Below, in pieces: positions 510 through 29,325 of a DNA stretch of 64,000 nt. Under the pieces are notes generated by a model that was not told the origin of the DNA, made no database searches, and was given only the letters and a program-made list of their open reading frames with translations. Source of the stretch: an uncultured Candidatus Saccharibacteria bacterium. Lineage in GTDB: Bacteria > Patescibacteriota > Minisyncoccia > JACQLN01. Each line of letters opens with the position of its first letter. The stretch's first letter is position 1. Position numbers and translations under genes: made by a program. The DNA is taken from contig CAYIPG010000001.1 in NCBI GenBank assembly GCA_964365305.1, positions 2,214 through 66,213 of the forward strand, read 5' to 3'.

Positions 510-935
510 CTATTTTTTAGAAAGAAGATTAAACAATAAAAAATGCAAGGGGTATTTCTTTTTTAACCAATTAAAAGAATATGCTATATCTTCACTCTTA
601 TTTGACTTGATAAATCTTTTACTTAAAACCTTTTGAAAGTTCTTTATCGCATTTTCATAACCGCCTAAACCAGAAATTAACCAACGATGGACATTAGCTA
701 TTGTGCCTTGGCTGGCCTTAAGTTCAGCGGCAATCTCACTGTAACCCTTGCCAGCTAGCAGGTGTTGGGCAATCATAATTCTTCTTGCTAACATAACCGC
801 CTCGGTTTCGCTAAGCAGTTCCTTGAAAAAATTCTTAACTTCTTCTCTGGAACGCAATTCAGTAATGCTTGTCCATAAAAGATCAAGATAATGCATTCTA
901 ACTTTTGAATCTAATCTCCTAGGACTAACTCTCAT
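510..935 (-). CDS. TrpR-like / YerC-YecD family small DNA-binding protein.
   Basis: 141 aa. The segment LLSETEAVMLARRIMIAQHLLAGKGYSEIAAELKASQGTIANVHRW matches the helix-turn-helix pattern of the Trp-repressor-like YerC/YecD family. Confidence 0.55.
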   Translation of the reverse strand: MRVSPRRLDSKVRMHYLDLLWTSITELRSREEVKNFFKELLSETEAVMLARRIMIAQHLLAGKGYSEIAAELKASQGTIANVHRWLISGLGGYENAIKNFQKVLSKRFIKSNKSEDIAYSFNWLKKKYPLHFLLFNLLSKK

Positions 936-5886: not shown

Positions 5887-5925
5887 CAAACAAAAAGGGT
5901 TAGTGATATAGAATCACTAACCCAT
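5887..5925 (-). terminator. Rho-independent terminator for the 5960-8185 gene.
   Basis: Perfect 11-bp stem gggttagtgat/atcactaaccc (5897-5923) with loop ataga. On the minus strand it is followed by TTTTTGTTTG. Confidence 0.6.
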
Positions 5926-5959: not shown

Positions 5960-8185
5960 TTACCTTTTTAGCTTGCCTTCTTTAATTTGTTTGATAAAAA
6001 CCTCTCCTTGTTGTTTAAAGTCGGGCGCCAGTTCTATGGCCTTTTCTAATTGTTCAATGGCTTTTTTATCTTGAAAGATCTTGACATAAGCCGAAGCCAA
6101 ACTTAAACGATACTGGGCGTCACTGGGATTTTGGGCCACCAGCTTTTCCCAAATCAAAGCCACTTTATCAAACTTACCCAAGGCAATATAGGCATTTATA
6201 TATTTTGGATTAGCCACCACCTCGGCGCCGAAATGTTTTTTAAGCAAGGCCTCGGCCTCTTGCGGTCGGCCGGAAAAAATAAGCACGATAGCATAGTTAT
6301 GGATAGCGTCGGGATATTCAGGCGCGAGTTCATAGGCCTGTTTTAAGGTGTCCATCGCCAAGTCCTCCTCGCTCGCCCTAAAATAGGCCTCGCCCAACAA
6401 GAAATAAAACTGCTGCCTTTGGGAAGACACGCCTAAACCTTGCCGGGCTGTGAGGATGGCGTTAGGATAATCACCCGCCGTGCCGTAAAGAGTTGTCAAA
6501 AATGCCAGCGCTCGAATGTCATATGGAAATGCTTCCGCTTGTATTTTCATTTGTTCCAAGGCAAACTCGGTAACATTTTTTTTCTCTTCGGCTGGAGTGG
6601 CCGGATCATCATTGATCTTTTCCGAATAAAGCGCGAGTTGTTCTCTAATTTCCGGCGTGCCAAAAGTATTATACTCTATGCCGCGTTTTAAGGCCTGCAT
6701 ACCCCCATCTAAATCGCGCGCGCGGCTGCCGTCCCGGGAATAAGTTACCATCTGTAAAGCATTGATAATGCTCTTGGAAGCCAAAATCGGTTTAACATTA
6801 AAAGAATACAGCGAAAAAATCACTATGACTCCAACAACAGCCGTGATAACAGATCTGGCAATTTTAGGCACGGCCACCGTCTCCGATAAATTATTGCCCG
6901 ACAAATCCTGGTCGGATTTAACATATAACCAGTGTAAATACCCTAAGACGGCAAAGAAAATCATATAACTGGTGAAGTTATCAAAAACAAAAATGTTGTG
7001 GATAAAGTAAGCCACTAACAAACCCGCCATTACCGCCACTAATTTGGCTGACAATGTTTTTGATTTAAAAAGTTTCCACAAAACAAAACTAGCGGCGGCA
7101 AACATACTTAAGTAAGTCAGTAGGCCAACTATGCCTGTGGCGGTAAGCCAGTCCAGAAAAACATTGTGAGCCCGATCAAACCAGGGTTCTTGGCGCCACA
7201 TTCTGGAATCATAATATTTAGAAAAAATATAAACAAAATTTTCCGGACCCCAACCCAAAATCGGCCTTTCCTTCCAGGCCTGATAAGCCATGTTCCAAAT
7301 AAGAAAACGGGATTGGGTAGTGGTCTCGCTTAGCGAGATACTGGCAAAGCGGGTTAACACATCGCTGTTTCTAATAAAAGAAGTATCTTTAAGAGCAAGA
7401 AAACTCCCCACCATCAGCGCTATAACCAATAAACCAGATAACGCTAACTTGCGAGCCAAACCGCGCCCATACACGACATTTATTACAGCCCCTATAAATA
7501 AACCGGCGATAAGGCCGAGAATAGCGCCGCGCGTGGCCGTTTTATAAACAATGAAAAATTCAAACACGGCCGCCGCCAGCAAAATCAATCTCAAAAAAAT
7601 ACTCCGACCTTGAGACCTCAAAAAGAACCACAATAAAAGAAAAATATGGAAAACAAGATAGATGGCCAAATAAGTGGCATTGCCCATGGTGGCGTCTATG
7701 CGATCATCACCCTGATGAATATCAAATGAACCCAGCAATTGCAACAAAGCATAGAAACTCACGGTCAAACTGACTACCAGTGATACTCCAAAAAATACAA
7801 CCCAGTCCCGTTCCTTCCTGAAAACACTGGTTAGCATCAGAAAATAAATAAAATAATGCCAATAACCCCAGAACCCCTCCATCCGCTCAAAACCGGACCA
7901 AAAACTCTTGTAGGGGGAAACGCTAAAAATAGTGGCTAGAAACAGAACCAATGTCCATGTCACCACACTATATAAAATAACCGAGGAGCGCGGCCGATAT
8001 TGGGAGTCGCTCATCATCAACCACAACCAGAACACAAAAATGATTTCTATTATAATCCTAAAAATAAAATTACGGCCGGTGATAAAAGGGAAAAACAAAG
8101 ACCGGGTTACCACCAGCGACAAAATCGGCACTGCCAAAAGACCTATTTTTACCACCCAGGCAAATAATTTCTTGGTATCAAGCAT
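5960..8185 (-). CDS. O-antigen ligase-like (Wzy_C-type) polytopic membrane protein fused to a C-terminal TPR-repeat domain.
   Basis: 741 aa. About 10-12 predicted TM helices in the first 430 aa, then a soluble domain with repeated A..Y/LG.AY TPR-like helical pairs (YELAPEYPDAIHNYAIVL..., LAPDFKQQGEVF). Confidence 0.55.
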   Translation of the reverse strand: MLDTKKLFAWVVKIGLLAVPILSLVVTRSLFFPFITGRNFIFRIIIEIIFVFWLWLMMSDSQYRPRSSVILYSVVTWTLVLFLATIFSVSPYKSFWSGFERMEGFWGYWHYFIYFLMLTSVFRKERDWVVFFGVSLVVSLTVSFYALLQLLGSFDIHQGDDRIDATMGNATYLAIYLVFHIFLLLWFFLRSQGRSIFLRLILLAAAVFEFFIVYKTATRGAILGLIAGLFIGAVINVVYGRGLARKLALSGLLVIALMVGSFLALKDTSFIRNSDVLTRFASISLSETTTQSRFLIWNMAYQAWKERPILGWGPENFVYIFSKYYDSRMWRQEPWFDRAHNVFLDWLTATGIVGLLTYLSMFAAASFVLWKLFKSKTLSAKLVAVMAGLLVAYFIHNIFVFDNFTSYMIFFAVLGYLHWLYVKSDQDLSGNNLSETVAVPKIARSVITAVVGVIVIFSLYSFNVKPILASKSIINALQMVTYSRDGSRARDLDGGMQALKRGIEYNTFGTPEIREQLALYSEKINDDPATPAEEKKNVTEFALEQMKIQAEAFPYDIRALAFLTTLYGTAGDYPNAILTARQGLGVSSQRQQFYFLLGEAYFRASEEDLAMDTLKQAYELAPEYPDAIHNYAIVLIFSGRPQEAEALLKKHFGAEVVANPKYINAYIALGKFDKVALIWEKLVAQNPSDAQYRLSLASAYVKIFQDKKAIEQLEKAIELAPDFKQQGEVFIKQIKEGKLKR

Positions 8186-8222: not shown

Positions 8223-8948
8223 CTACAACTTTTGACTCCGTAATTTTTCTACAGCCAATTCGGCCAAGAACCAATCTTCAGGACCATCAATGTTAACACT
8301 GTATTTTTCGGCCATGGGATATAGCGCCACCTTGTCGCCGTAAAAATTAGGACTTTGGGGATCAAACAACATTTCTGGTTTAAAAACATAAATGGCGCCA
8401 TTGTGGTAATAATTTTTTTTAGGAAAACTTTGCCGGCGGGGTATGCGATTTTTTATCGGCTCGCCGATAAAAAGTTCACCCCAGCCATTTTCATTTTCCA
8501 CCACCGCCCAATAGGGGCTAAAATGTCCTGGGATTTCGGAAACGCTAACCACCGAATCGGCTAATTTATTTTTGAATAAGACCATGGCCTCTTGGATATG
8601 CCAGGTCTGCCTTAACGGCGCGGTGGGTTGTAACAGCGCCACCACATCGGGCTGATAGTTCTCGTTTTCTTTTAACCAAGATATGGCATGTTGAAGCACC
8701 GGCAAATGCGGCGTGCCGTCTTGAGCCAGTTCAGCGGGACGGATAAAAGGAACTTCCACATTATACTTTTTGGCCACATCGGCGATTTTTTGATCATCAG
8801 TGCTTAAAATTAAACGATCAAAAACACCCGACTCTTGGGCGGCTTTAATCGTGTAAGCAATTAGTGGCTGGCCACATAAGTCCTTTATATTTTTACCGGG
8901 AATACCCTTAGAGCCGCCGCGCGCGGTTATAATGCCAAGTATTTTCAT
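8223..8948 (-). CDS. Acylneuraminate cytidylyltransferase family (CMP-nonulosonic acid synthetase, NeuA/LegF/PseF-like).
   Basis: N-terminal ILGIITARGGSKGIPGKNIK and LILSTDD motifs of the CTP_transf_3 family. Its start overlaps the upstream NeuC-like stop by 4 nt (translational coupling). Confidence 0.75.
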   Translation of the reverse strand: MKILGIITARGGSKGIPGKNIKDLCGQPLIAYTIKAAQESGVFDRLILSTDDQKIADVAKKYNVEVPFIRPAELAQDGTPHLPVLQHAISWLKENENYQPDVVALLQPTAPLRQTWHIQEAMVLFKNKLADSVVSVSEIPGHFSPYWAVVENENGWGELFIGEPIKNRIPRRQSFPKKNYYHNGAIYVFKPEMLFDPQSPNFYGDKVALYPMAEKYSVNIDGPEDWFLAELAVEKLRSQKL

Positions 8949-10207
8949 AAAGATAGAGTATTAAAAGATTTTTGCGGATCTGGATTTACACTCGCTAAAA
9001 TATCGGCAATTTTATTTCCAGCGTTGCCGTTGCCAAACATGGTATTACGGGGATACTTTCCAATTTTCAACTGGCGCTTAACCGCTGTTATAATTTCGCT
9101 TGAATCCATTTTTGTTTCAATAACATTATCTCCACGCTCCCGACTGTTTTGACGAGAACCGACTAGCACCACCGGCGTGCCAAAATAAGCCCCTTCTCTT
9201 ATAAAACTAGATGAATTGCCGATAGCGCAAGAGGACTTATTCAAAAGTCTATAAAAATCATCGGGCGGCAAGTGTTTGGTGAAAAAAACTTTAAACTTCT
9301 TTTCTTGATTGGCCCACTCCTTGATTATTCTGCCAAGTTCAGCCGAACCGGCGTCTATGTTTGAGCCCAACAGAACAACATTCATACCTAGTTCGTCCAA
9401 CGACCTTATCAAAACATTGGCCATTGTTTTATTTTCCTCTTTAGAAGCGGTGGTCACTGGATGCATAAGAACCAATAAAAAATTTTCACCTACTTTATCA
9501 ATAATATCAATATCCGAGACGGTGTTTTTATTTAATCGACAAACGGCGTCTATCGCCGGCGAGCCGACATTAAAAACAAATTCGGGATTCTCGCCCATTT
9601 GAATCACCCGTTTTCGGCTGGCTTCGGTGGAAGTAAAATGGAGATGAGCTAATTTAGTAATGGCATGGCGAACGCTTTCGTCCAAAGTGCCGCTTAAATC
9701 GCCGCCTTCGTTGTGGGCTATGGGCACATTAAGATAAGAAGCCGCAACCGCCACCGCTATCATTTCAAAGCGGTCGGCGTTTACAAAAACGATATCCGGT
9801 TTTAATTGTTTGAGTTTGTCCACCAATTTTATAATTCCCAATCCGGCCGACTTGGCCATGGTTTCTGAATTGCCGCCATCCAGAAAAAAAGAAACATAAC
9901 CGTTTACACTAAAACCGTCTTTCAATAAACTTTTTGCCAAAAAATCATTTTTAAGAACATAATCTTTTCCCAGAAACGATCTAAGGCGCCCCAAAACATA
10001 CCATGGCAACGCTAAAAGCCACGATCGGGGCCGACTATGTTTGATATTGGCAAAAAAATTGTCGTAGGCCGCCGGCACGCCCACGATTATTTGAAGTTCC
10101 AAACCCGGATGATTTTTAATAGCGCTAAGAACCGTTCTTAAGCGGCCATAATGCGCTCGGTTAAAAATCGGCACCAGGATTTTTCTTTTCCCGACCAATG
10201 TTGTCAT
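8945..10207 (-). CDS. UDP-N-acetylglucosamine 2-epimerase, hydrolysing type (NeuC-like).
   Basis: 420 aa. IAHNEGGD...RHAITKLAHLHF...GSPAIDA pattern of Epimerase_2 / NeuC-type enzymes. Confidence 0.75.
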   Translation of the reverse strand: MTTLVGKRKILVPIFNRAHYGRLRTVLSAIKNHPGLELQIIVGVPAAYDNFFANIKHSRPRSWLLALPWYVLGRLRSFLGKDYVLKNDFLAKSLLKDGFSVNGYVSFFLDGGNSETMAKSAGLGIIKLVDKLKQLKPDIVFVNADRFEMIAVAVAASYLNVPIAHNEGGDLSGTLDESVRHAITKLAHLHFTSTEASRKRVIQMGENPEFVFNVGSPAIDAVCRLNKNTVSDIDIIDKVGENFLLVLMHPVTTASKEENKTMANVLIRSLDELGMNVVLLGSNIDAGSAELGRIIKEWANQEKKFKVFFTKHLPPDDFYRLLNKSSCAIGNSSSFIREGAYFGTPVVLVGSRQNSRERGDNVIETKMDSSEIITAVKRQLKIGKYPRNTMFGNGNAGNKIADILASVNPDPQKSFNTLSL

Positions 10208-11313
10208 GATATAAATTCAACCGGAATCGGTTCGCCTTTCTTTAAGTCCGCCGCGGCTTTTTGGCCCAAAATCTCTTCGTATTTTTCCGATGGCAAACCG
10301 GCCAGATAGGCCTGCGGCCGCATCGCCCATAATTTTTCGGAACTGATAACTTCCCCTTTTTTAATATCACAAGCGGCCGCTAAGGTTTTTCTAAAAAACG
10401 GCCGAAATTGTTCCTCGCCGCTTTGCAAAATTTTATCGACTTGTCCCAGGCCGGCTTTTACAACTTCTTTGTTTAGATATTCTTCTTTCAGGCGCGGATC
10501 TGTTTCTATTTTCCTGACACCATCAACCAAAAACTTCAACTCATCCGGCGTCAGGGCAACTTTATGATCCGAACCCCACAGATCGCGGCTTAGCGAAAAA
10601 TGTTTTTCTATTATAGTGGCGCCCAAAGCCACCGACGCCAAAGCCGAATCAATGCCAATAGAGTGATCCGAAAAACCAACCGGAACATTGTATCTTTGTT
10701 TAAAAAATTCCACAGTGCGTAAATTCAAATCCTCGGTGGGGCAGGGATATTTTGAAACGCAGTGCATCAAAGCCAATGGGGTGCCGCGCCGTTTTAAAAA
10801 ATCAACCGAATTGTCAACTTCTGCCAAAGTGCTCATACCGCCCGAAATTATTATGGGCTTTTTTGTTGAAGCCAAATAATCCAGCATCACAAAATCCAAA
10901 ATATCGCCCGAGCCGACTTTCCATAATTCCACGCCCACTTCTTCGTTCAAAAGTTTAGCCGCGCCGCGAGTCATCGGCGTGGAAAAAAATAAAATGCCGA
11001 TTTCGTCGCAATATTTTTTTAATTCCCGCCAAAACCAAACCGGCGTGGCCAAAGTATTGCGCTTGACCCAGTTGTATCGGTCGGCGCCCTTAAAATGCGG
11101 CGCGACCACACTGATGTTGGCCTGTTCATCCTCTACGGTGTGGGTTTGAAATTTAACGGCGTCGGCCCCGGCTTCTTTAGCCAATTTCGCCAATTCTTTA
11201 GCATTCCGCAGATATGTTTCAACCGTCTGATCCGCTTCCGTTTGAATAAACCCCTTGCCCACTTCGGCCACCACCAATACGCCTTTAGAAATTTTGTCCC
11301 AAAAATTGCTCAT
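10204..11313 (-). CDS. N-acylneuraminate (nonulosonic acid) synthase, NeuB family, with a C-terminal SAF domain.
   Basis: VKFQTH, HCVSKYPCP, GFSDHS and EKHF motifs, with a C-terminal KKGEVISSEKLWAMRP antifreeze-like SAF domain. Confidence 0.8.
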   Translation of the reverse strand: MSNFWDKISKGVLVVAEVGKGFIQTEADQTVETYLRNAKELAKLAKEAGADAVKFQTHTVEDEQANISVVAPHFKGADRYNWVKRNTLATPVWFWRELKKYCDEIGILFFSTPMTRGAAKLLNEEVGVELWKVGSGDILDFVMLDYLASTKKPIIISGGMSTLAEVDNSVDFLKRRGTPLALMHCVSKYPCPTEDLNLRTVEFFKQRYNVPVGFSDHSIGIDSALASVALGATIIEKHFSLSRDLWGSDHKVALTPDELKFLVDGVRKIETDPRLKEEYLNKEVVKAGLGQVDKILQSGEEQFRPFFRKTLAAACDIKKGEVISSEKLWAMRPQAYLAGLPSEKYEEILGQKAAADLKKGEPIPVEFIS

Positions 11314-12281
11314 GATATTTTTTTATCTTCCCAATTATAAACCCAGTCGTTATTTATCAAACTGGCGAAGCGGCCGCGATAATAATCGCGGTTCAACATT
11401 TCAGTATGAGTCATCTCCCTTTGGGGCAAACCGACCATTTCTTTCCAATCAGGAATTTCTTTTTCAACTATATTTTTTTGTTCCTCTTTTGATAATTTAG
11501 CAAAATCGGATAAGTCCTTTAACAACTCCGGCGTTATGGAAACCGGACCGTCCTTGGTTTTATCGGCCGGCAGAATCGTAAAATGCCTTTCAATATAATC
11601 CGCCCCTAACATTATCGCCGCTTTGGATACCTTAATACCATCGCGAGAAATCAGAGTATGGTCCGACCAACCAATGCGGGGAGTAAATTGACGCAACCAA
11701 TCCAGACGAGCTAAGTTAGCCATGGCCAGAGTATTGGGATAATTGGTAACGCAGTGTAAAAAAACAAAGTCCTTATTTTTTGATTTTAAGATCTCGGCGG
11801 TTTTTTTAATTTCCTCGTCAAACGAAGCGCCGGTGGAAATTATCAAATTATCAAAATTATCCGATAGTTCCGAAACCATAGCATGACTGCCGCAATCATA
11901 ACTGGCCACCTTAACCATTTTTTGACTGGCGTAGGGCAAAGCAGCGGCCAATGGAATTCTGTTTCTGGAAAAAACTGTAAGCATCGGCGCTACACCGACT
12001 TTATTGCATTCGTCCACAAAAAACTTGTAGTCATCTGCCGTTAAATCAACACCCCGCAATCTTTCCAGTTCGGCCTGATATGGCCGCTTGATAGTTGTGC
12101 GAACACCGTTGTTTTCTTCGTGGCCTTCTTCAAACCGTTCGCGGCAAGTTAGATCCTCCGAGAATATAATTTGCCCCTTAACAATATCGGCGCCGTTTTC
12201 TTTAGCGGCATAAATCATATCTCTCAAAATTTGACGGTCGCCGTTGTGATTTTGGCAAATTTCAACGATTATTTTAGGCAT
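11310..12281 (-). CDS. Second NeuB-family (PEP-sugar aldolase) paralog, shorter and without a clear SAF domain.
   Basis: IVEICQNHNGD, HCVTNYP, GWSDHT and ERHFT motifs of the NeuB fold. Overlaps the downstream NeuB by 4 nt. Confidence 0.65.
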   Translation of the reverse strand: MPKIIVEICQNHNGDRQILRDMIYAAKENGADIVKGQIIFSEDLTCRERFEEGHEENNGVRTTIKRPYQAELERLRGVDLTADDYKFFVDECNKVGVAPMLTVFSRNRIPLAAALPYASQKMVKVASYDCGSHAMVSELSDNFDNLIISTGASFDEEIKKTAEILKSKNKDFVFLHCVTNYPNTLAMANLARLDWLRQFTPRIGWSDHTLISRDGIKVSKAAIMLGADYIERHFTILPADKTKDGPVSITPELLKDLSDFAKLSKEEQKNIVEKEIPDWKEMVGLPQREMTHTEMLNRDYYRGRFASLINNDWVYNWEDKKIS

Positions 12282-12482
12282 GTAATTCTACTTTTTTTGT
12301 ATAATAATATAACCCTAAAACTAGCAAATTTGTATCCGCTAGGCAAACCCCGTAAAGCAACTTTGGCCAATCAAAATAGCTGCGCTAATGGTGATATAAT
12401 GTCTATTAAAAAATAAGATTTTCCAAGATATAATAGTCCTAATGAAGTTTGATTGAGAAAGCAGCTGCCAAAGTTGTCTGAC

Positions 12483-12530
12483 GGGGCAAACAAAAAACCG
12501 CCCCGGGCTGTTGGCGAGGGGCGGGTTAAG
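12483..12530 (-). terminator. Rho-independent terminator for the 12542-13723 gene.
   Basis: GC-rich stem aaccgcccc / ggggcgggtt (12496-12527, one bulged G). On the minus strand it is followed by TTTTGTTTG. Confidence 0.5.
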
Positions 12531-12541
12531 AAAATCCAAGG

Positions 12542-13723
12542 CTAAGCCTTGGATGTAAGTTTTTCGGCTATCAACTTAGCTGCGTAACGATTGCCGTCTA
12601 AAGTCCCAAATTTTTCTAATAGTTCCTGATTGAACGCGCGGATGGCTGGTTTCATTTTTTCTGCCTCTGCGATCATTTCCCCCAGACCTTGGCCGCGATA
12701 CACAATGCCCAAGCCCAGTTTTTCAACACAGCGATTGTTAAAATAAATTTCGGGATCATCCTTGGGATCAAAATCAGGCACCACTAAGGGCGTTCCGGAA
12801 AGTTGCGACAACCAAACCGAGCCCCAGCCCGAACGGGCAAACTGGAAAATTATTTTGGGGTTGGAAACAACATGCGGCAAAAGTTTTTCCGACCCCGGCA
12901 CTGTTTTGGGATCGTTGCTGTAAATTTTTAAGCCCAATTGTTCGGCTTCTTTATACAACCGCTCCAAACCGGGAATGCCGGTTATGGTCACATAGATGCC
13001 TTCGGCAATATCGTCGTTGTTTGGAACTGGGGGATAAATCGTTGGCGGGATCAAAACCTCTTTAGGATAGGGCTGACGATTGGCCATATAAGAAAAAGTT
13101 CCGGGATGAGCCAAACCGATAAATTGGTATTGGGATTCAATTTCTTCGGCCAGCGGAATGACTCTTTTAACCAATTCCCGATCTACCGCAATTTCCTCTT
13201 TGGAAATAGTCAGAGTATTTTTCAATATTTCGGAAATATGCCCAAAACTAACCCCGAAACAAACCGACAGACCATATTTGACCCGGCCGGAGCGGGAAAG
13301 TTCTAAAACAATATCCCCGCCCGAAACAACTTTTTTATGGCCAGCCAAATCCTCTACTTCAATTTCTCCTTTTAAGTAGTCAGTGGCCGCCGAATTAACT
13401 TCGTTAAATTTGTCGGCCCAGATTTCCAACGCTTGCTGATAGGTATTATCGCCGTAAAAAATGGTTTTTAAAATTTCTCCCAACCGAGAGCACAACAATA
13501 TCTCGCCGGGATATTGTTGATTGGCGGCGCTAAACTCCTCCAGCATAATCCGCTTTTGTTTTTCGCCATAAACCCACGGCGCGATAATGCCAAAGCGTTC
13601 CCGACCCTGCGATTCCAACTCCTCATTGATGGCCAAAACCAGTTCGGTGGTTCTTAAATACGGCCCGGTGCCATAAGCAAAATTGGTGACAATAAACTTA
13701 TTTATTCTTGAAACCTTTTTCAT
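12542..13723 (-). CDS. Hypothetical protein; the C-terminal region resembles the GT-B nucleotide-sugar-binding half (MurG/PseG-like).
   Basis: 393 aa. The segment ARSGWGSVWLSQLSGTPLVVPDFDPKDDPEIYFNNRCVEKLGLGIV resembles the G-rich loop plus acidic motif of MurG/UDP-glycosyltransferase C-terminal domains. No other motif was recognised. Confidence 0.3.
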   Translation of the reverse strand: MKKVSRINKFIVTNFAYGTGPYLRTTELVLAINEELESQGRERFGIIAPWVYGEKQKRIMLEEFSAANQQYPGEILLCSRLGEILKTIFYGDNTYQQALEIWADKFNEVNSAATDYLKGEIEVEDLAGHKKVVSGGDIVLELSRSGRVKYGLSVCFGVSFGHISEILKNTLTISKEEIAVDRELVKRVIPLAEEIESQYQFIGLAHPGTFSYMANRQPYPKEVLIPPTIYPPVPNNDDIAEGIYVTITGIPGLERLYKEAEQLGLKIYSNDPKTVPGSEKLLPHVVSNPKIIFQFARSGWGSVWLSQLSGTPLVVPDFDPKDDPEIYFNNRCVEKLGLGIVYRGQGLGEMIAEAEKMKPAIRAFNQELLEKFGTLDGNRYAAKLIAEKLTSKA

Positions 13724-13806
13724 ATGAATTGAATACAGATTGACCCATTTAAAACACTTATATATACTAACTGCAAACCCAAATTTTAATCAAGAAAAAT
13801 TGTTAA

Positions 13807-14589
13807 ATGAACCAGCGAGAATATTATAATCTTTATAAAGTTGAAAAATTTTATTGGTGGTTCGTCGGCCGGCGATTTATCATAAAAAACATAATAAATA
13901 AATATATCTCCAAAACAACCTGCCTTAGAATTCTTGATTATGGTTCTGGAACAGGCGGTAATTTTTCTTTACTAAATGAGTTTGGTAATACGGTCGGCGC
14001 AGAGGTGTCAACTGTGGCAATAGAACTTTCAAAACAAAACTTTCCTAGTAATAAAGTTTACACAATAAATAAGGATCAAGCATTGCCATTTCCAGACAAC
14101 CACTTTGATTTGATAACACTATTGGATGTTTTAGAACATGTTAAAGATGACATAAAATTACTAAGCGAAATAAAAAGACACTTAAAGCCAAATGGAAACA
14201 TGTTAATAACTGTGCCGGCTTACCAATTTTTGTGGTCGGAACATGATGAGGCCTTAGGCCATTTCAGAAGGTACACCTTAAAAAATCTAACTAAAAAACT
14301 AGAAACTACTGGTTTCAAAGTTACCTACGCCACTTATACTATGTCTCTATTGTTTCCCCTAATGGTGTTTTACAGATTAATCCAGCAGTTAGTCAGTAAA
14401 AGTAAATCAACAGCACTTTTACACCCCACGGTTTCTTACCTCAATATTCCTACGCCTGTGAATTACCTATTAGTATCCATACTAAAACTGGAATCCTTGC
14501 TACTAGGGATTATGAAATTTCCTTTTGGGATGTCAGTTGCAATTTTAGCCCAAACACATAATGAACTGTCCAATTTGCCGCAGCGTTAA
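13807..14589 (+). CDS. Class I SAM-dependent methyltransferase.
   Basis: ILDYGSGTGGN motif I and LLDVLEHV motif; 260 aa. Confidence 0.7.
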   Translation: MNQREYYNLYKVEKFYWWFVGRRFIIKNIINKYISKTTCLRILDYGSGTGGNFSLLNEFGNTVGAEVSTVAIELSKQNFPSNKVYTINKDQALPFPDNHFDLITLLDVLEHVKDDIKLLSEIKRHLKPNGNMLITVPAYQFLWSEHDEALGHFRRYTLKNLTKKLETTGFKVTYATYTMSLLFPLMVFYRLIQQLVSKSKSTALLHPTVSYLNIPTPVNYLLVSILKLESLLLGIMKFPFGMSVAILAQTHNELSNLPQR

Positions 14590-15445
14590 AATAAGCAAAA
14601 AAAACCACATCCGCTATCGTAATTTATCAATCTGCCGACAATGCGGGGTTGTTTTTGTTTATCCTCAACCCCATAAAAAATCTATCGCCCAATTATACGA
14701 TTCTTCTTACTTTAAAAACGACCAATCACACCTGTGCGGGTATGAAAACTATGAAAAAGACAGAAAACTTATAATTAAAACGGCTCACCGACGATTAGAA
14801 TTTATAGAAAAAAACTGCCAACTCCGAGGTAAATTATTAGACATCGGTTGTTCTATGGGCTTCTTTCTAAAAGCAGCGGAGGATCGGGGCTGGAAAGTGC
14901 GCGGCATTGATATCTCAGAAAACGCTATAACAACCGCCCAAAAAGAGTTGATAGGTAAAGTCGCGGCAACCACTTTAGAAAAATCCAGCTTCCCCGACAA
15001 CCACTTCAACATAATCACGCTTTGGGATACTTTAGAACATGTCCCCGATCCAGTCCAAACAATATCTCAATGCTACCGCATTCTGAAACCTGGCGGGTGT
15101 TTGGTTCTGACCGTTCCCGCTATAAACAGCTGGCCTGCCAAAATAATGGGTACTAACTGGATGGGTTACAAAGACGAACATCTGTTCTATTTCACCAGTC
15201 GTTCCTTAAAAATACTTCTGTCTCAAGCTGGGTTTGAGGTAAAAAAAATCCGATATACCGGCAAGTATATTTATCTCAACATGTTCACTAAAAGATTATC
15301 TTTGTATAGTGTTCCTATGGCGGCTATTATACAAAAACTTATTAACCTCCTAAGATTAAACACTCACAGTATCTACATAAACCCATTGGATATTGTAATG
15401 GTCATGTCTCAAAAACAAATGCACACCGATAATCATTTGCAATAA
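14561..15445 (+). CDS. Class I SAM-dependent methyltransferase with an N-terminal Cys4 zinc-ribbon.
   Basis: CPICRS...CRQCG zinc-ribbon, then LLDIGCSMGFFL motif I and LWDTLEHV. Overlaps the previous methyltransferase by 29 nt. Confidence 0.65.
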   Translation: MNCPICRSVKISKKNHIRYRNLSICRQCGVVFVYPQPHKKSIAQLYDSSYFKNDQSHLCGYENYEKDRKLIIKTAHRRLEFIEKNCQLRGKLLDIGCSMGFFLKAAEDRGWKVRGIDISENAITTAQKELIGKVAATTLEKSSFPDNHFNIITLWDTLEHVPDPVQTISQCYRILKPGGCLVLTVPAINSWPAKIMGTNWMGYKDEHLFYFTSRSLKILLSQAGFEVKKIRYTGKYIYLNMFTKRLSLYSVPMAAIIQKLINLLRLNTHSIYINPLDIVMVMSQKQMHTDNHLQ

Positions 15446-15465
15446 AAAAACCTTCAGCCAAAAAA

Positions 15466-17868
15466 TCATCTAAAAAAATTGAGATCCGGCAAATAGTATG
15501 AATATTTAAAATCAACAATATGCTCACCCGGCGGAATAAAAACACCCATATAAACTGTGTTAACCTCATATATTTTTGCCTCTTTACCATCCACAAAAGC
15601 TTTCCAGCCGGGATAATTATTTTGAGAAAATATTAAAAACTGGTTATCGGCAGAATCTGTTTTGACTTTAAATAAAGTATTTTTCTTTTCCTGTAATTCA
15701 ATATTCCCCATCGCCGAAAAAACAGTAGAGTCACAATCGGCGCATTTTACAAAAATAGGATTTTCTTCCCCCGCCAATCCAGATTCTATGAAGTTTTGAA
15801 AAATATTATCATTATTCGCGCCGAAACCATTGATTTTTTTAACAAAATAAAACGTGGGTTTAGCGTCGCTGTTATCATATATTGATAATCCAACGGTTTC
15901 CCCAGTCTTCTTGCTTTGAACAAATGGTAAAATAAATGCCCGGCCCAGACCAAGGGGGCTAAAATCAACACTGCTAAGTATATAACGGACTCCCAGAAAA
16001 TTAAATATAAACAGACGCTTTTTTAGAATTTTTATCTTTTCATCAACAGCTATAGGCGCGGTGGCTAAATCGTAAGAAACAACCGAGGATAATCCGGAAT
16101 CCATTTCAAAAGATTTTATATCTTCTTTGGGATAGGGTGAAACAAAAAGTTCCCCGGACGGAACAAGAATCATCTTCCATAACCGACTAGTATTAAAACT
16201 AAGAAGCTTCTCATAATAACCGCCACTGTCTAATCCGTAAAAAAGATTCAAATTGGGTTTAATCCATAAAGTATTATTTTTTTCTTTTCTGATCTCATCA
16301 CCTCCCTCAGCTAACTGTTTATCTAATTCTTCGGGAAACAAAGTTATATAGCGCCCGGGATTTGCCCGCAAAAACCCTACGTTGGACAGTTCTTTGTATT
16401 TGTAAGATATGGGGTCATTCACATCAAACGAAAAAGCAGAAACCAAGACAAAATCAAAAACGGTAATAAAAATCAAAACCAGCAAGGGCAACCTGCTGTA
16501 TTTCTCTCCGTATAAAAACTTCATAGACAAATATCCTATAACCAAAAACAAAAAAGGAATCAGCATTTTCCCATAAACCACTACATTATTAAAATCCTTG
16601 ATGTACTTTATTCTAAAATAAAAAACAAACGCCAGTGTGACCAGAATGGCGCTAATCCCAATGACAGATAAAAGAATAAGTGCTGACTTCTTTTCGGGTT
16701 GTGATTCTTTTTTAATAAAAAAATCGGCAGCCAATCCTATTAGAATCGCTGAAGCAAAAGATCCTATTAGCATAAACCGGCTGGGAACTCTAAAAGCGTT
16801 AAGAATCGGGATTTTCGTTATTATCCAAAATAAGGGTGAATATTTAAGACCGATCGCAAGGGATGCCAAAAACAGCCACCGAAAAAATCTTAGAAAGGGA
16901 ACTCTGATAAAAAAAGAGGCTGCCAAAAACAAGAATGGAATGGCGCCCACATATAAGGACTCTTCAGACCCTTGGGTCGCGTTATCACGAGAAATATAAA
17001 TCGGCAGATCGGAATAGAAATCTGGGAGGAAAAAACGAGGCAGATCTACCGGACGAATTGAGTGCTCGGAAAGAAGATTATAAGGTATAGGCATCCCCCG
17101 TGAAGACATCTGCGCCACCCAGAAAGTTGGCCAGATTTGAACAGCCCCAATCATAATACCGACGATATTTATCAAAACAAAACTGAATAAAATCCTCTTT
17201 CTTTTTTCAGTATTTTTAATAGCCAAATAAATTGCAAAAAATCCAGCCGCGATAATTATCCAGAGAACAAAATGGGGCGTTATTGACAACCAACTTAAAC
17301 CTATTGCCAAGCCACCCCAAAAAACATACCACCGTGGACGCTCGGATTTATTTATTTTTAAAATTATTAGAAACAGCAGGGGTAAAAGAACTAATGAGTA
17401 AGCAACAGATGTTATGTGGCCAAAAAAGTATTGTTCACTGATAACAAAACTAAGACCACCAATAATAGAAGCATGGATGCCAAGTCCCAGTTCTTTTAAA
17501 AATAGAATAGTAAAAAATAGAGCAAAAACAGATGATAAGAAAATGAGCCAGTAGAAAGCCACCGTAGCAGAAAAAAAGATTATAAAAATCCAGTGTAGTG
17601 GAAAGAAAAAACCGCCTAAACTTGCGTAAATAGGAAACCCGCCAGCATTTTGAGGATTCCATAACATGCCAGAAAAAATATTCTCCTTCAAAAAATTCAG
17701 GTAAGGAATATTAAAAAGTAACGGATCACCACCTATTACCTTATCGGAAAATAAAAAAGGCCAATAGACCAGCATCATAATAAAAACAGATGCCGTCAAA
17801 CTACCCCACCATTTTTGCAAAAAATCCTCTAAAAACTTCATAGGTCGTCCTATTAGTTTATACACCAC
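15466..17868 (-). CDS. Large polytopic membrane protein, YfhO-like (putative extracytoplasmic GT-C-type glycosyltransferase).
   Basis: 800 aa. More than 12 TM helices over about 480 aa, followed by a large soluble C-terminal domain, which is the YfhO-family architecture. No sequence motif was confidently matched. Confidence 0.4.
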   Translation of the reverse strand: MVYKLIGRPMKFLEDFLQKWWGSLTASVFIMMLVYWPFLFSDKVIGGDPLLFNIPYLNFLKENIFSGMLWNPQNAGGFPIYASLGGFFFPLHWIFIIFFSATVAFYWLIFLSSVFALFFTILFLKELGLGIHASIIGGLSFVISEQYFFGHITSVAYSLVLLPLLFLIILKINKSERPRWYVFWGGLAIGLSWLSITPHFVLWIIIAAGFFAIYLAIKNTEKRKRILFSFVLINIVGIMIGAVQIWPTFWVAQMSSRGMPIPYNLLSEHSIRPVDLPRFFLPDFYSDLPIYISRDNATQGSEESLYVGAIPFLFLAASFFIRVPFLRFFRWLFLASLAIGLKYSPLFWIITKIPILNAFRVPSRFMLIGSFASAILIGLAADFFIKKESQPEKKSALILLSVIGISAILVTLAFVFYFRIKYIKDFNNVVVYGKMLIPFLFLVIGYLSMKFLYGEKYSRLPLLVLIFITVFDFVLVSAFSFDVNDPISYKYKELSNVGFLRANPGRYITLFPEELDKQLAEGGDEIRKEKNNTLWIKPNLNLFYGLDSGGYYEKLLSFNTSRLWKMILVPSGELFVSPYPKEDIKSFEMDSGLSSVVSYDLATAPIAVDEKIKILKKRLFIFNFLGVRYILSSVDFSPLGLGRAFILPFVQSKKTGETVGLSIYDNSDAKPTFYFVKKINGFGANNDNIFQNFIESGLAGEENPIFVKCADCDSTVFSAMGNIELQEKKNTLFKVKTDSADNQFLIFSQNNYPGWKAFVDGKEAKIYEVNTVYMGVFIPPGEHIVDFKYSYYLPDLNFFR

Positions 17869-17943: not shown

Positions 17944-18903
17944 CTATTTTTTTAGAAAATTAAAAACCGATTCAGCAATAAAATCTTGAGTAACTGCCAT
18001 CGCCTCATAAGTAGCGCCGCCGATATGGGGCGCGATGATTAAATTCTGATGAGTTTTGGTATATTTCCAAAGCTGGTCTTTTTTTAGATGACTACCATCA
18101 CTGCGTTCATCCCACATTACATCTATGCCCGCGCCGGCGATCCGTTTGTTTTTTAAGGCGTTATATAAAACATTTTTTTCTATCAACTCTGCCCGAGCGG
18201 TGTTTATCAAATAAGCCGATGGTTTCATGGAACGCAAATGTTTTTCTTTTATTAAATTTTGGGTTTGATCGGTTAGTAAAACATGAAGTGAAACAATATC
18301 TGATCTCTTAAATAGTCCATCCATATTAATCTTGACCACGCCCCGCGATTTCATAAACTTCTCTGAAACATTGGGGTCGCAGGCCATAACTTTCATATTA
18401 AAGGCCTTGGCGTAGCGAGCCATAATTTTGCCTAAACGACCGAAACCCAAAAGACCGACGCTTTTCCCTAAAAGTTGGTGCCCGCTCCAACTGGAACTGT
18501 TCCAACCACCTAATTTAACATCATCAAAAGCCGCGGGAATATTTCTAAGCAAAGATATTATCAATCCGAAAGTTAATTCGGCCGTTGAGGGAATATTTTT
18601 TAAAAAACTTTTTTGTCCGCGTAAAGAAATTATTTTTACGCCCTTAGCTTTGGCGTATTTTGTATCAATATGGTTAAGACCTGTGGTGGAAGTGGCGATA
18701 ATTTTTAGATTAGACATCTTGGCCATCAGTTCGCCGGAAACAGTAAGGCCAAGGCGCACAACCAAAATATTAATTTGAGGAAAAATTTTATTTTTTTCTT
18801 TAGAGCTTAAATTCTCCAAAAAATAAATCGACCCTAGTTTTTTATAAATAGCTAGGGCCTTAGACGAATAATTACTTTCGGCAATCAATATTTTTAATTT
18901 CAT
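17944..18903 (-). CDS. D-isomer-specific 2-hydroxyacid dehydrogenase family (NAD-binding).
   Basis: GLLGFGRLGKIMARYAKAFNMKV (GxGxxG) and the C-terminal HIGGAT motif typical of the family. Confidence 0.75.
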   Translation of the reverse strand: MKLKILIAESNYSSKALAIYKKLGSIYFLENLSSKEKNKIFPQINILVVRLGLTVSGELMAKMSNLKIIATSTTGLNHIDTKYAKAKGVKIISLRGQKSFLKNIPSTAELTFGLIISLLRNIPAAFDDVKLGGWNSSSWSGHQLLGKSVGLLGFGRLGKIMARYAKAFNMKVMACDPNVSEKFMKSRGVVKINMDGLFKRSDIVSLHVLLTDQTQNLIKEKHLRSMKPSAYLINTARAELIEKNVLYNALKNKRIAGAGIDVMWDERSDGSHLKKDQLWKYTKTHQNLIIAPHIGGATYEAMAVTQDFIAESVFNFLKK

Positions 18904-19622
18904 GATAACAACCCTTTAGAAATCATAAACTCGGCAAATTCCCAGTCCATAATAGAGTCAATATCAAAAACCTCGCCTTCCAAAAACAACGGCAAAATGT
19001 TTTCGCCGCACATGGATTTTTTATTCATTATGGTTTCGTAACGCGCCACATCTACTTGGCCATAATGATTATAGGCCTTCGGCAATTTTTGGCGCGGCCA
19101 ATTGAATATTTCTTTTTCGCCTTCAACAACCAAAATCGGTTTCAAAAAACCGGTCTCGCTGGCGTGAAACATTTTATAGGGAGTAACCGGCGGCTTACCC
19201 ACTGTCCAAACCGCGTCGGCGTCGGAATTATCGGCAATCATTTCAACCGCCTTATCAATATCGGCGGTTTTTCGAAACGGATGAGTGGGACGCAAATGAA
19301 CAATAAAATCTGGATGCCAATTATCGTTTTTTTCCAGCCACTCCAAGGCGTGAACAAAAACAGGATGGTCGAGCGTATCATCTTGGGCCAGTTCTTTCGG
19401 TCTGATAAAAGGAACTTCACAACCACACTCTCTGGCAACCTTAGCTATTTCTTCGTCGTCGGTAGATAAAATCAAGCGGTCAATATATTTGGCCGCTTTC
19501 GCCTTTTCTATGGTATGGGCGATTAAAGGTTTGCCGCCCAATAATTTGATGTTCTTTTTGGGAATTGATTTAGACCCGCCCCGGGCCATAATCAGGCCTA
19601 AAACTTTGTGATCTTTGTACAT
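18900..19622 (-). CDS. Second acylneuraminate cytidylyltransferase-family protein.
   Basis: VLGLIMARGGSKSIPKKNIK...LILSTDD; a paralog of the 8223-8948 gene. Overlaps the downstream dehydrogenase by 4 nt. Confidence 0.75.
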   Translation of the reverse strand: MYKDHKVLGLIMARGGSKSIPKKNIKLLGGKPLIAHTIEKAKAAKYIDRLILSTDDEEIAKVARECGCEVPFIRPKELAQDDTLDHPVFVHALEWLEKNDNWHPDFIVHLRPTHPFRKTADIDKAVEMIADNSDADAVWTVGKPPVTPYKMFHASETGFLKPILVVEGEKEIFNWPRQKLPKAYNHYGQVDVARYETIMNKKSMCGENILPLFLEGEVFDIDSIMDWEFAEFMISKGLLS

Positions 19623-21340
19623 TATAATCTTTTATATTCAACTCCTTTTATCTTTTTTATTTCGTCTTCTTTATATAAGCCCCAGGTGTCAAACAATAAA
19701 ACAGAATTATCAGCCAAAGCCAAAAGTTGACGCAGATTTAAATCCTCAAAAATAGGGTTGTTATTCATAACCACCACGGCGTCGGCGTTGGCAAAAGAAT
19801 CCTTCAAATCCTCTGTATATTTAACCCCTAAACGGGAAACCTCGTCACCATTAACCACCGGGTCGTGAACATGAATATTTTTTAGGCCGAATTTCTTTAA
19901 CCGGGCGATTAAACCGATTGTGGTTGAGCCCCTGATATCTGAAGTCGCGGGCCGACCCTTAAAAGCCGCGCCCAATATTAAGACCTTATTGTTATTTTTC
20001 TTTTTTGTTTTTAGAAAAGAATTAATTTCGTTCGCCACAAAATCAACCATGGTCTCGCTGATAGCCCGAGCGTTACTGGCCAACTTGGGAACATATTTTA
20101 CTTTCTTGGCGCTTTCAATAAATAAAAATGGATCTTTTTCCAAACAAATTCCGCCTACACCCGGACTGGGCAGAGGCACCTGGCCCCGTTCGTAACCCTT
20201 ATTGGCCGCCTCAATAACCCGGTGGGTGTTAATGCCGAATTTATGGCAGACCAACGAAAGCTCGTTGGCAAAAGCAAAAGTCACGTCGCGATAGACATTA
20301 TTTACCAACTTGACCATCTCGGCTTCCTCTAACGACTCCACCAAAACCACCGAGTGGGTTAAATGATTAAAAATACTGGCCACCAAATCCGCGCTGACCC
20401 AATTTATGCCGCCGACAACTTGAGGCAGTTTTTTTAGTTCTTCCAGCGCTTTGCCTTCTATTGTTCTTTCCGGCGCGAAAGCGACAAAAAAATCATCACC
20501 CGCTTTTAAGCCAGATTTTTTTTCTAAAATTGGAACAATAATTTCCCTGGTAGTACCTATCGGCACAGTTGATCTTAAGATAACTGCATCACCAGATTTA
20601 AGAACACTGCCAATATTTTCCGCCGCGAACTTGATATAACTTAAATCGGGCTTTTTGGTTTTTTTGTTTAAGGGCGTGCCAACGGCAATAAAATAAACAT
20701 CGCAATTGTTACCGTTCTTAAAATCATTGACGATATTTAGATTGGTTTTGAAATTATCTTTAAAAATTTGTTCCAAACCCTGCTCAAAAAAATGCGGGGC
20801 GCCCGAATTTAAAGAACTAACAACTTTAGCATCGGTATCATAACCGCACACCTTAAAACCAATATCGGCTAAAGTTACCGCCAGAGTCAAACCCACATAA
20901 CCCAACCCCACCACGCCAATTTGTTTGAACCTAACATCACTCTTTTGCCATAAATCGTAAAAAGAAACTAAATCAATCACTCGCCTATTTTTATCCACTA
21001 TAATAATTTTATTCAACCGATCTTTATGCCAATGTTCTTTTTTTATTTTTGAAGCAACTATGGATAAAATTTCATTAGAACTCTTGGGCCCTTCTATTAA
21101 AAAAGGATTTTTGTTCATCACTTTTTCAATAGGATCATCCAATGAAACCCCTTCGGATAAACCCCTCCGAATATCACCATCTGTGGCAATGCCCAACAAT
21201 TTATTTTTTGGATTTACAACCAAAATAACACCGGCGGGCAATAATGTTTGGCTTGATTTATTCAAAGTCAATAAAGACAAAGCCCGACCAATGCTTTCCT
21301 TTGGTTTTATAGAAATCTTTGAAAAATCTTTGATAATCAT
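19622..21340 (-). CDS. CBS-pair domain fused to a UDP-glucose/GDP-mannose dehydrogenase-family nucleotide-sugar dehydrogenase.
   Basis: The N-terminal ~130 aa contain two CBS-like motifs (GIATDGDIRRG, IIIVDKNRRVIDLVS). They are followed by IGVVGLGYVGLTLAV (NAD-binding), GGICLEKDP and GAAFKGRPATSDIRGS, which are characteristic of UDPG_MGDP_dh N, central and C domains. Confidence 0.75.
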   Translation of the reverse strand: MIIKDFSKISIKPKESIGRALSLLTLNKSSQTLLPAGVILVVNPKNKLLGIATDGDIRRGLSEGVSLDDPIEKVMNKNPFLIEGPKSSNEILSIVASKIKKEHWHKDRLNKIIIVDKNRRVIDLVSFYDLWQKSDVRFKQIGVVGLGYVGLTLAVTLADIGFKVCGYDTDAKVVSSLNSGAPHFFEQGLEQIFKDNFKTNLNIVNDFKNGNNCDVYFIAVGTPLNKKTKKPDLSYIKFAAENIGSVLKSGDAVILRSTVPIGTTREIIVPILEKKSGLKAGDDFFVAFAPERTIEGKALEELKKLPQVVGGINWVSADLVASIFNHLTHSVVLVESLEEAEMVKLVNNVYRDVTFAFANELSLVCHKFGINTHRVIEAANKGYERGQVPLPSPGVGGICLEKDPFLFIESAKKVKYVPKLASNARAISETMVDFVANEINSFLKTKKKNNNKVLILGAAFKGRPATSDIRGSTTIGLIARLKKFGLKNIHVHDPVVNGDEVSRLGVKYTEDLKDSFANADAVVVMNNNPIFEDLNLRQLLALADNSVLLFDTWGLYKEDEIKKIKGVEYKRL

Positions 21341-29096: not shown

Positions 29097-29325
29097 ATTT
29101 TACATTATATTTATCTAAAACTTTTTTAATATCTCCCACATTTTTAACCGCCATAAGATCATCCATATCAAATCTGACACCACTAGCTTTTTCCAGCTCA
29201 ACCATCATCATTATAGCATTAAAAGAATCCCATGTTGGCGTGTTGGTTGGAGAAATTTCATCATTTATTTTGTTGCTGGGGATTTCCAATATTTTTGCCA
29301 GTATATCGTATAATTTTTCTTTCAT
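29086..29325 (-). CDS. Acyl/peptidyl carrier protein (DltC/ACP-like).
   Basis: 79 aa. WDSFNAIMMMVELE contains the phosphopantetheine-attachment Ser in a DS(L/F) context followed by the helix-II acidic patch. Confidence 0.7.
   Translation of the reverse strand: MKEKLYDILAKILEIPSNKINDEISPTNTPTWDSFNAIMMMVELEKASGVRFDMDDLMAVKNVGDIKKVLDKYNVKYVC

Follow-up and report, generated by a model that had tools for sequence, protein, structure and literature searches.

The 64-kb window analysed here (positions 1-64000, the whole stretch taken from contig CAYIPG010000001.1) carries a block of four overlapping minus-strand genes between 8223 and 12281, which the first-pass annotation had described as a complete CMP-nonulosonic acid pathway with a duplicated synthase. 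Following our analyses we favour, with moderate confidence, another reading: that the block is a composite transcription unit in which two independent sugar-acid modules, each spread across the candidate phyla radiation (CPR), stand head to tail. The first gene, encoding the synthase NeuB-S, would belong to module I, and the next three (NeuB-L1, NeuC1 and CMPT1) to module II. In this clade NeuB-S would have become translationally coupled to module II, and a terminator together with a 4-kb insertion would have cut off its old partners in this genome. Part of the earlier description stands, as genes two to four make up a self-sufficient trio for an acid of the N-acetylneuraminic acid (Neu5Ac) type. 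The notion of a duplicate within one pathway does not, because the two synthases are divergent, fall in separate clades and keep other partners. The "duplicated NeuB" is resolved in this way into two testable units, a Neu5Ac-type pathway with a Wzy_C/TPR protein and an uncharacterised pathway with a Pfam-less GT-B protein and a synthase that has no SAF domain.

Structure and boundaries of the four-gene block

Four open reading frames (ORFs) were read on the minus strand at exactly the positions annotated before, and all are intact. These, the gene that follows them and the hairpins on either side are:

11310-12281, minus strand: NeuB-S, 323 amino acids (aa), Pfam NeuB domain only and no SAF; first gene of the unit
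10204-11313, minus strand: NeuB-L1, 369 aa, Pfam NeuB and SAF domains; first gene of module II
8945-10207, minus strand: NeuC1, 420 aa, Pfam Epimerase_2, of the hydrolysing UDP-GlcNAc 2-epimerase type
8223-8948, minus strand: CMPT1, 241 aa, Pfam CTP_transf_3 (PF02348), a NeuA-like CMP-nonulosonate synthetase
5960-8185, minus strand: Wzy_C/TPR gene, encoding a 741-aa membrane protein, O-antigen-ligase-like, with a C-terminal TPR domain
5897-5923, minus strand: strong terminator-like hairpin, an 11-bp stem and then a T-run, which closes the unit
12492-12554, minus strand: two hairpins directly after the stop codon of the upstream gene unk393

The coupling of the four genes by 4-nt overlaps was confirmed from both the ORFs and the strand itself: all three junctions read ATGA, with the stop codon TGA sharing 4 nt with the next ATG. 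Such overlaps are found at 6 of the 44 same-strand junctions in the window, and the three consecutive ones are those of the block. Tightly packed operons are common in small genomes, and these overlaps are typical of a tight operon and nothing exotic. Because the same four-gene arrangement was assembled independently in at least four Hainich groundwater metagenome assemblies, the block is not an assembly artefact. The host is a Patescibacteria metagenome-assembled genome, as supported by these Hainich assemblies and by an upstream protein that is 100% identical to a protein of a metagenome-assembled genome named 'Patescibacteria group bacterium'.

The operon had been taken to end at 8223, and this part of the annotation probably does not hold. 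The Wzy_C/TPR gene begins 37 nt past CMPT1 with no terminator-like site in the gap, and the hairpin comes after it; the likely transcription unit therefore runs over five genes, from 12281 to 5960, with Wzy_C/TPR probably the fifth. At the other end, the second hairpin after unk393 (CCGCCCC...GGGGCGG and then U6) resembles an intrinsic terminator. The hairpin pair folds at -30.5 kcal/mol (z = -5.4), and none of 200 shuffled sequences folded equally well. This terminator sets unk393 apart from the four-gene block, and below it the 260-nt spacer (12282-12541) holds promoter-like hexamers, for example the site at 12459-12430. Rfam and tRNA scans of the window gave no hits, and thus no riboswitch or other RNA element in this leader.

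Synteny of the two modules

We collected 106 related loci, with 84 distinct NeuB-S loci (numbered below with the prefix L), and assigned their ORFs from BLAST matches to the window proteins, accepting neighbours at E<=1e-8. Twenty-two of the loci are well covered, having 8 kb or more of sequence to each side of NeuB-S. Within 8 kb, unk393 is present in all 22, a CMP-transferase in 21, the dehydrogenase CBS-DH in 18 and a TagF-like protein in 10, while a 2-hydroxyacid dehydrogenase (2HADH) and a SAF-containing NeuB (NeuB-L) are each present in 9 and NeuC in 4. The gene unk393 lies immediately upstream of NeuB-S in 43 of the 54 loci with enough sequence, and a CMP-transferase is the next gene downstream in 16 of 51. 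Five distant lineages (L020, L071, L075, L092 and L100) have the order CBS-DH, unk393, NeuB-S, CMP-transferase; a 2HADH gene comes directly after the last two in L075 and L092, and in L086 a methyltransferase stands between. Clustering of the unlabelled neighbours of NeuB-S gave no further recurrent family, the largest reaching 8 of the 84 loci.

The window order NeuB-S, NeuB-L1, NeuC1, CMPT1, Wzy_C/TPR was found only in close relatives (L009-L011, L021, L027, L029 and L032). Orthologues of NeuB-L1 from distant CPR lineages, 65-66% identical and on long contigs (L111-L113), are clustered with NeuC, CMPT1 (65-67% identity) and Wzy_C/TPR (45-47%), and NeuB-S does not occur within 10 kb of these three clusters. 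The four-gene block therefore unites the final gene of module I with the opening three genes of module II.

The remaining genes of module I are also in the window, further upstream:

12542-13723, minus strand: unk393, 393 aa, Pfam-less; GT-B fold, GT1-like, by fold comparison against the PDB
13807-17868: lineage-specific insertion of two plus-strand S-adenosylmethionine methyltransferases and a YfhO-like membrane protein, which splits module I here
17944-18903, minus strand: 2HADH-a, D-isomer 2-hydroxyacid dehydrogenase, PGDH-like, a frequent member of module I
18900-19622, minus strand: CMPT2, PF02348, matching NeuA-like PDB entries; co-travels with NeuB-S
19622-21340, minus strand: CBS-DH, 6-dehydrogenase for nucleotide-diphosphate (NDP)-activated N-acetylhexosamine (HexNAc), extended at the N-terminus by about 135 CBS-like aa
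21344-22750: MT-GT2, the window counterpart of the gene preceding CBS-DH in L009-L011

NeuB-S is preceded in L009-L011 by MT-GT2, CBS-DH, CMPT2, 2HADH and unk393, and the 13807-17868 insertion is absent between 2HADH-a and unk393 in these closest relatives. The G+C fraction is 0.35-0.39 in the insertion, 0.45 in unk393 on one side and 0.375 in 2HADH-a on the other. As these differences are modest, the evidence for an insertion is the synteny with L009-L011 and not composition.

The same data bear on an alternative close to the original description, namely one pathway of the CMP-Neu5Ac type, where the two NeuBs would use the N-acetylmannosamine (ManNAc) made by NeuC1 and would share CMPT1, the SAF-less copy being a specialised duplicate with a variant product. 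The genes are adjacent, joined by ATGA and placed in one transcription unit behind a terminator, their order is kept in the seven related loci above, and NeuC comes right after NeuB-S in L019 and L053; given this coupling and these two loci, NeuB-S could also use ManNAc. Moreover, very divergent epimerases could be missed at the BLAST threshold used. All of this weighs against two separate modules. However, NeuB-S and NeuB-L1 are 27% identical over the barrel and fall in separate deep clades of a rough neighbour-joining tree. NeuC and NeuB-L accompany NeuB-S in far fewer of the well-covered loci than unk393 and the CMP-transferase do, module II occurs without NeuB-S, and the synthases and CMP-transferases of the window number three each. 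From the low identity, the separate clades and the different constant partner genes we conclude that NeuB-S is not a copy of NeuB-L1, and we consider a single pathway unlikely.

A few further observations concern the loci themselves. A GFO/IDH/MocA oxidoreductase and a short-chain dehydrogenase/reductase (SDR) precede NeuB-L1 in L111 and L113 (at about 6200-9900 in L111-L113), and L111 alone has genes for an APH-type kinase and a HAD hydrolase separating the two; in L112 a 2-hydroxyacid dehydrogenase precedes NeuB-L1 instead. All three have an opposite-strand Pfam-less gene of 320-370 aa between NeuC and CMPT1. The GFO/IDH/MocA, SDR, APH-type kinase, HAD hydrolase and opposite-strand genes are not present in the window. 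A sugar-phosphate route of the Neu5Ac-9-P or Kdn-9-P type for NeuB-S was rejected as a general explanation, as a HAD phosphatase was found near NeuB-S in 4 of the 84 loci only.

Module II enzymes and the provisional Neu assignment

A NeuC-type epimerase, a NeuB and a NeuA-type transferase suffice for a CMP-Neu5Ac-type sugar, and by this established pathway knowledge NeuC1, NeuB-L1 and CMPT1 should be sufficient for one. NeuC1 would turn UDP-GlcNAc into free ManNAc and UDP, NeuB-L1 would condense ManNAc with phosphoenolpyruvate (PEP) to a Neu5Ac-type nonulosonic acid, and CMPT1 would activate this acid with CTP. The Wzy_C/TPR protein would then handle the sugar-bearing glycan, by ligation or polymerisation at the cell surface.

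NeuC1 scores 330.2 bits against TIGR03568, the NeuC/NnaA equivalog, well above its cut-off of 235.9, but this model does not separate NeuC from LegG. Compared with single proteins it reaches 210.6 bits with the epimerase domain of human GNE, 183 with Acinetobacter LegG and 32.6 with N. meningitidis SiaA, whereas its paralogue NeuC2 has the reverse preference (GNE 158, LegG 189 bits). The motifs DRFE, EGGD, GTLDES and RHAITKLAH are retained and align with GNE. At about residues 52-90 there is an insertion of about 35 aa (...SRPRSWxxALPWYVLARLRSFLGK...), conserved in the orthologues and limited to the clade of NeuCs encoded next after NeuB-L1 in the close relatives of the window; it is absent from NeuC2 and other CPR NeuCs, and may be amphipathic or membrane-associating.

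NeuB-L1 has the NeuB barrel (PF03102, 2.5e-71) and the SAF domain (4.2e-9, 37.3 bits) with an equivalent of R314, and its family is 61-89% identical across CPR. With TIGR03586, the pseudaminic acid synthase equivalog, it scores 228.8 bits, under the cut-off of 340.25. In the neighbour-joining tree N. meningitidis NeuB is the sister of its clade, which stands apart from the CPR NeuBs flanked by DegT and dehydratase genes. CMPT1 matches PF02348 with 85.1 bits, and its best PDB matches are CMP-Neu5Ac synthetases (6ifd with 129 bits, 9ftb and 1eyr; range 103-129), compared with at most 39 bits for KdsB, so that its closest relatives are nonulosonic acid (NulO) and not Kdo cytidylyltransferases. 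Its orthologues, 61-78% identical, are always alongside NeuB-L1 and NeuC.

The Wzy_C/TPR protein matches Wzy_C at 8.9e-21 together with many TPR models, and is syntenic with NeuB-L1, NeuC and CMPT1 in L009-L011, L029 and L111-L113. It may act as ligase/oligosaccharyltransferase or as polymerase on the glycan that would carry the module II sugar. Considered with two other proteins of the window, an initiating transferase of the Bac_transf family (1106-2494) and a flippase resembling Wzx (54928-56328), it would point to an undecaprenyl-phosphate-linked glycan that would be ligated or polymerised outside the membrane.

Module II is much like the neuC-neuB-neuA systems of E. coli K1 (neu), N. meningitidis (siaA/B/C) and Campylobacter (neuC1/B1/A1), where enzymes of these three families, encoded in a single operon, lead from UDP-GlcNAc to CMP-Neu5Ac. 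The likeness extends to the SAF domain and R314 equivalent of NeuB-L1, to NeuC1 above the equivalog cut-off and to the CMP-Neu5Ac synthetases nearest to CMPT1. The differences are the altered loop of NeuB-L1 and its score below the equivalog cut-off, the insertion in NeuC1, the Patescibacteria host, and the link to a Wzy_C/TPR protein instead of a sialyltransferase of the GT38, GT42, GT52 or GT80 type.

From the gene content, the preference of NeuC1 for GNE over LegG and the position of NeuB-L1 in the tree, we hold it to be about evenly balanced whether the product of module II is Neu5Ac or a close analogue, and the Neu assignment is provisional. Several points count against it. NeuB-L1 falls below the cut-off of TIGR03569, the N-acetylneuraminate synthase equivalog (275.9 against 399.65 bits); the third NeuB of the window, NeuB-L3, is also below it (300.5 bits). 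The PDB scores of NeuB-L1 place it nearly equidistant from N. meningitidis NeuB (161 bits, the best match), SpsE (149) and PseI (149). At about residues 17-35 it has GK(G/N)FIQTE and about nine more residues in place of the xNH loop after the catalytic Glu, a motif conserved in every NeuB-L1 orthologue examined, whereas NeuB-S keeps the canonical QNH. The loss of this otherwise universal loop and the nearly equal PDB scores leave room for a substrate other than ManNAc. For CMPT1, PseF is the highest-scoring NCBIfam model, below its cut-off (169.2 against 205.7 bits), and NeuC1 carries the conserved insertion. The tree has no support values and one characterised reference sequence, and the typing as Neu, Leg or Pse was by bit-score comparison and this context-labelled tree, with one PDB reference per type and no LegI among them.

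The alternative raised by these points is that the trio serves a pathway of the legionaminic acid type (or one to another 5,7-diamino acid), with NeuC1 as a LegG whose substrate, a diacetamido-trideoxyhexose, would be made by genes elsewhere in the genome. Both pathways combine a hydrolysing 2-epimerase of the NeuC family with a synthase of the NeuB family and a CMP-transferase (LegG, LegI and LegF in the legionaminic case), LegG and NeuC both match TIGR03568, and LegG still scores 183 bits with NeuC1. However, a legionaminic pathway also requires LegB, LegC and LegH (or PglF/E/D), and NCBIfam and Pfam scans found no equivalents of LegB/LegC/LegH or of PseB/PseC/PseH/PseG in the 64-kb window. 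The best model scores there were at most 128 bits for LegB (cut-off 475), 46 for PseB (407.75), 180 for LegC (420) and 191 for PseC (423.5), and no acetyltransferase domain was found among the window ORFs scanned. The enzymes that come nearest are of other types:

35971-37035, minus strand: RmlB-type dTDP-glucose 4,6-dehydratase, 390 bits and above cut-off, the only 4,6-dehydratase in the window
37907-39118, plus strand: RfbH-like pyridoxal-phosphate enzyme, the only DegT protein, 359 bits, against 180 for LegC and 191 for PseC

The aminotransferase- and acetyltransferase-type genes that would have moved the pathway to Leg or Pse are therefore not found in the 64 kb, although they could lie outside it. 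With NeuC1 leaning to GNE and NeuC2 to LegG, and with the NeuB-L1 clade not grouped with the NeuBs beside DegT and dehydratase genes, we think a Leg-type trio quite improbable. As for the RmlB-type and RfbH-like pair itself, it suggests a dideoxyhexose branch rather than Leg or Pse precursors.

NeuB-S, a synthase with no SAF domain

The first-pass annotation had guessed that the upstream 323-aa NeuB provides a second condensing activity, and this guess points the right way, for NeuB-S has a CPR-wide module of its own, with a GT-B protein, CBS-DH and a CMP-transferase. The family spans Yanofsky-, Giovannoni-, Sung-, Kaiser- and Nomurabacteria and 'Minisyncoccia' at 60-89% identity, and an alignment of 35 sequences has 88 invariant columns, including the QNH loop and the two metal-binding His. 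Also invariant is an Arg-rich C-terminal tail (R288, R298, R302, R304, W313 and W317). NeuB-S is a member of the NeuB family by its significant matches to the TIM-barrel domain PF03102, and is far below both equivalogs, TIGR03569 (134.6 bits) and TIGR03586 (111.7), with the cut-offs given above. The structure model is a confident NeuB-type barrel that ends in a short two-strand stub. Pfam gives no SAF match, and since that domain is missing there is no R314 equivalent in the alignment to N. meningitidis NeuB.

By the numbering of the latter protein, NeuB-S keeps the equivalents of E25, K53, Q55, K129, S132, H215, E234, H236 and D247, of which K53, Q55, K129, S132, H215, H236 and D247 are residues that we take to be catalytic or metal-binding from the 2005 NeuB structure. 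The substitutions are E134 to Asp and F288 to Trp. When residues E25, E134, E234, K53, Q55, K129, H215, H236 and D247 were compared over NeuB-S, NeuB-L1 and NeuB-L3, all were kept except E134, which is Asp in both NeuB-S and NeuB-L1. The roles of E25, E134, E234, R314 and F288 are summarised in PMC8208679, where the change of E134 to Asp is present in 29% of environmental NeuBs. Judged from these residues, NeuB-S is very probably catalytically competent.

Other synthases with no SAF domain have been described, namely the 'environmental' NeuBs of group I (PMC8208679) and the Leptospira NeuB-like protein 6ncs. NeuB-S is no nearer in sequence to 6ncs (62 bits) than to N. meningitidis NeuB (64 bits), and it differs in forming its own CPR clade, in its conserved Arg-rich tail and in its fixed gene neighbourhood. 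No documented product for this class was found in the literature searched.

The lack of SAF and R314 in NeuB-S, next to a NeuB-L1 that has R314, suggests one more explanation for the coupling: that the two form a hetero-oligomer in which the SAF domain of NeuB-L1 reaches the NeuB-S active site and supplies the R314-type contact. NeuB is dimeric, with a SAF domain that supplies substrate-binding residues and a conserved R314 (PMC8208679), and ATGA coupling favours stoichiometric co-production. This is, however, a doubtful proposal, which we rate as very improbable: no NeuB-L lies within 8 kb of NeuB-S in 13 of the 22 well-covered loci, in L111-L113 no NeuB-S lies within 10 kb of NeuB-L1, L009 and L011 do not share the overlap, NeuB-S has its own invariant tail, and SAF-less homologues are common, making up about 30% of UniProt NulO synthases (PMC8208679). 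Finally, the idea that one of the NeuBs is in decay or is left over as a non-catalytic protein, as the missing SAF of NeuB-S, the missing xNH loop of NeuB-L1 and the scores of both under the equivalog cut-offs might suggest, is largely refuted and can practically be set aside; neither is degenerate, both being full-length members of families 60-89% identical over many CPR lineages, with the metal-binding His and catalytic Glu and Lys intact, odd features conserved clade-wide and a confident structure model.

Partners of NeuB-S and the possible product of module I

CBS-DH contains all three UDPG_MGDP_dh domains and scores 385.9 bits with TIGR03026; the closest specific NCBIfam models are UDP-ManNAc dehydrogenases, and the best PDB match is the P. 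horikoshii UDP-ManNAc dehydrogenase 4r16 (222 bits). Being UDP-ManNAc-dehydrogenase-like and having kept the catalytic-Cys motif GVGGICLEKDP, it should make a uronic acid. For unk393 we propose the role of an NDP-sugar hydrolase (a PseG- or NeuC-like step) or of the module I glycosyltransferase.

NeuB enzymes require a free aldose. As NeuC is usually absent near NeuB-S, and given the gene order of the distant lineages, a Pse-like logic of four steps is the most economical hypothesis. CBS-DH would make a UDP-HexNAc-uronic acid by oxidation at C6, unk393 would free the sugar from the UDP-uronic acid, NeuB-S would condense the free sugar with PEP, and CMPT2 would make the CMP-sugar from the product. 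CBS-DH, unk393, NeuB-S and CMPT2 would then mirror the UDP-sugar modifier, GT-B enzyme, NeuB-family synthase and CTP_transf_3 protein of the PseG-PseI-PseF part of the pseudaminic acid pathway. The differences are that module I has no PseB, PseC or PseH, that its modifier is a 6-dehydrogenase, that NeuB-S has no SAF domain and that hydrolysis by unk393 is our proposal. Equally, unk393 may be a transferase, and CBS-DH may supply a separate uronic-acid residue. For both modules the substrates and products named are deduced from the sequences.

Taken one step further, the product of module I could be a CMP-activated 3-deoxy-non-2-ulosaric acid, that is a nine-carbon dicarboxylic acid, from PEP and a free hexuronic or HexNAc-uronic acid. 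This is speculative, and we would call it unlikely as it stands. In that case unk393 would be a nucleotide-sugar hydrolase of a new type, and the product a Patescibacteria-wide surface sugar of an undescribed class; the Arg-rich tail of NeuB-S might replace SAF and bind the extra carboxylate, and the recurring 2HADH might find its natural target in a 2-hydroxy-acid terminus. A literature search for 'ulosaric acid' gave only plant papers on Dha. If module I does make a new sugar, the nonulosonic acid family would be extended and CPR cells would have a chemical marker.

A second PGDH-like D-2-hydroxyacid dehydrogenase (47827-48810, minus strand) is 43% identical to 2HADH-a. Each abuts a NulO gene, 2HADH-a being next to CMPT2 and the second next to NeuB-L3, homologues come before NeuB-L1 in L112 as well, and 2-hydroxyacid dehydrogenases are a recurrent partner of CPR NulO modules.

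The surrounding glycan island

The window as a whole is a glycan island of roughly 60 kb with three NeuB-type synthases and three CMP-transferases; all-against-all BLAST of the window ORFs gave these counts and two NeuCs, agreeing with the three NeuB and two NeuC paralogues counted before. Nearly all genes are on the minus strand and the G+C fraction varies from 0.30 to 0.47 from gene to gene. The impression is of a mosaic built from modules.

Attachment to other microbes is the way of life of Patescibacteria/CPR cells, and to our knowledge almost nothing is known of CPR surface chemistry. A search for literature on CPR, Patescibacteria or Parcubacteria with nonulosonic or sialic acids found nothing. 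The conservation of the two modules at 60-89% protein identity over many CPR lineages suggests that these acidic sugars are central to how CPR bacteria live and are not a strain-level decoration.

No classical sialyltransferase family was found in the window, and the TagF-like proteins are for this reason candidate CMP-sugar transferases. There are four such paralogues with a Glyphos_transf domain:

24772-26172, minus strand: TagF-like protein
32695-34056, minus strand: TagF-like protein
41207-42562, plus strand: TagF-like protein
49603-50973, minus strand: TagF-like protein

A search for literature on TagF-like Pse or Leg transferases found nothing. Two paralogous proteins of 625 and 653 aa (22833-24710 and 34053-36014, minus strand), 35% identical, each adjoin a TagF-like gene and have no Pfam match even at E = 10.

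A third NulO module consists of NeuC2, CMPT3 and NeuB-L3. Within it a protein that matches the UDP-sulfoquinovose synthase model (51762-53000, minus strand; 547.5 bits, cut-off 575) lies beside a PAPS-reductase-domain gene (53050-53730, minus strand), and this pair may be a sign that a CPR surface glycan contains a sulfo-sugar. Five genes at 27926-32649 on the minus strand encode an SDR, a MaoC dehydratase, an FkbH-like loader (29328-31115), a 4'-phosphopantetheinyl transferase and an MBOAT acyltransferase, a set that looks like carrier-protein-based acyl or glyceryl tailoring within the glycan island; an FkbH/ACPS pair is also near NeuB-S in L013. A B12-binding radical SAM enzyme (44401-45939, plus strand) has a counterpart in L018, where ORFs 60-72% identical lie at 12837-17511, just downstream of NeuB-S and CMPT2, and this link hints at C-methylation or similar sugar tailoring. 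At the edge of the island a Trp-repressor-family protein of 141 aa (510-935, minus strand) stands beside the Bac_transf initiating transferase.

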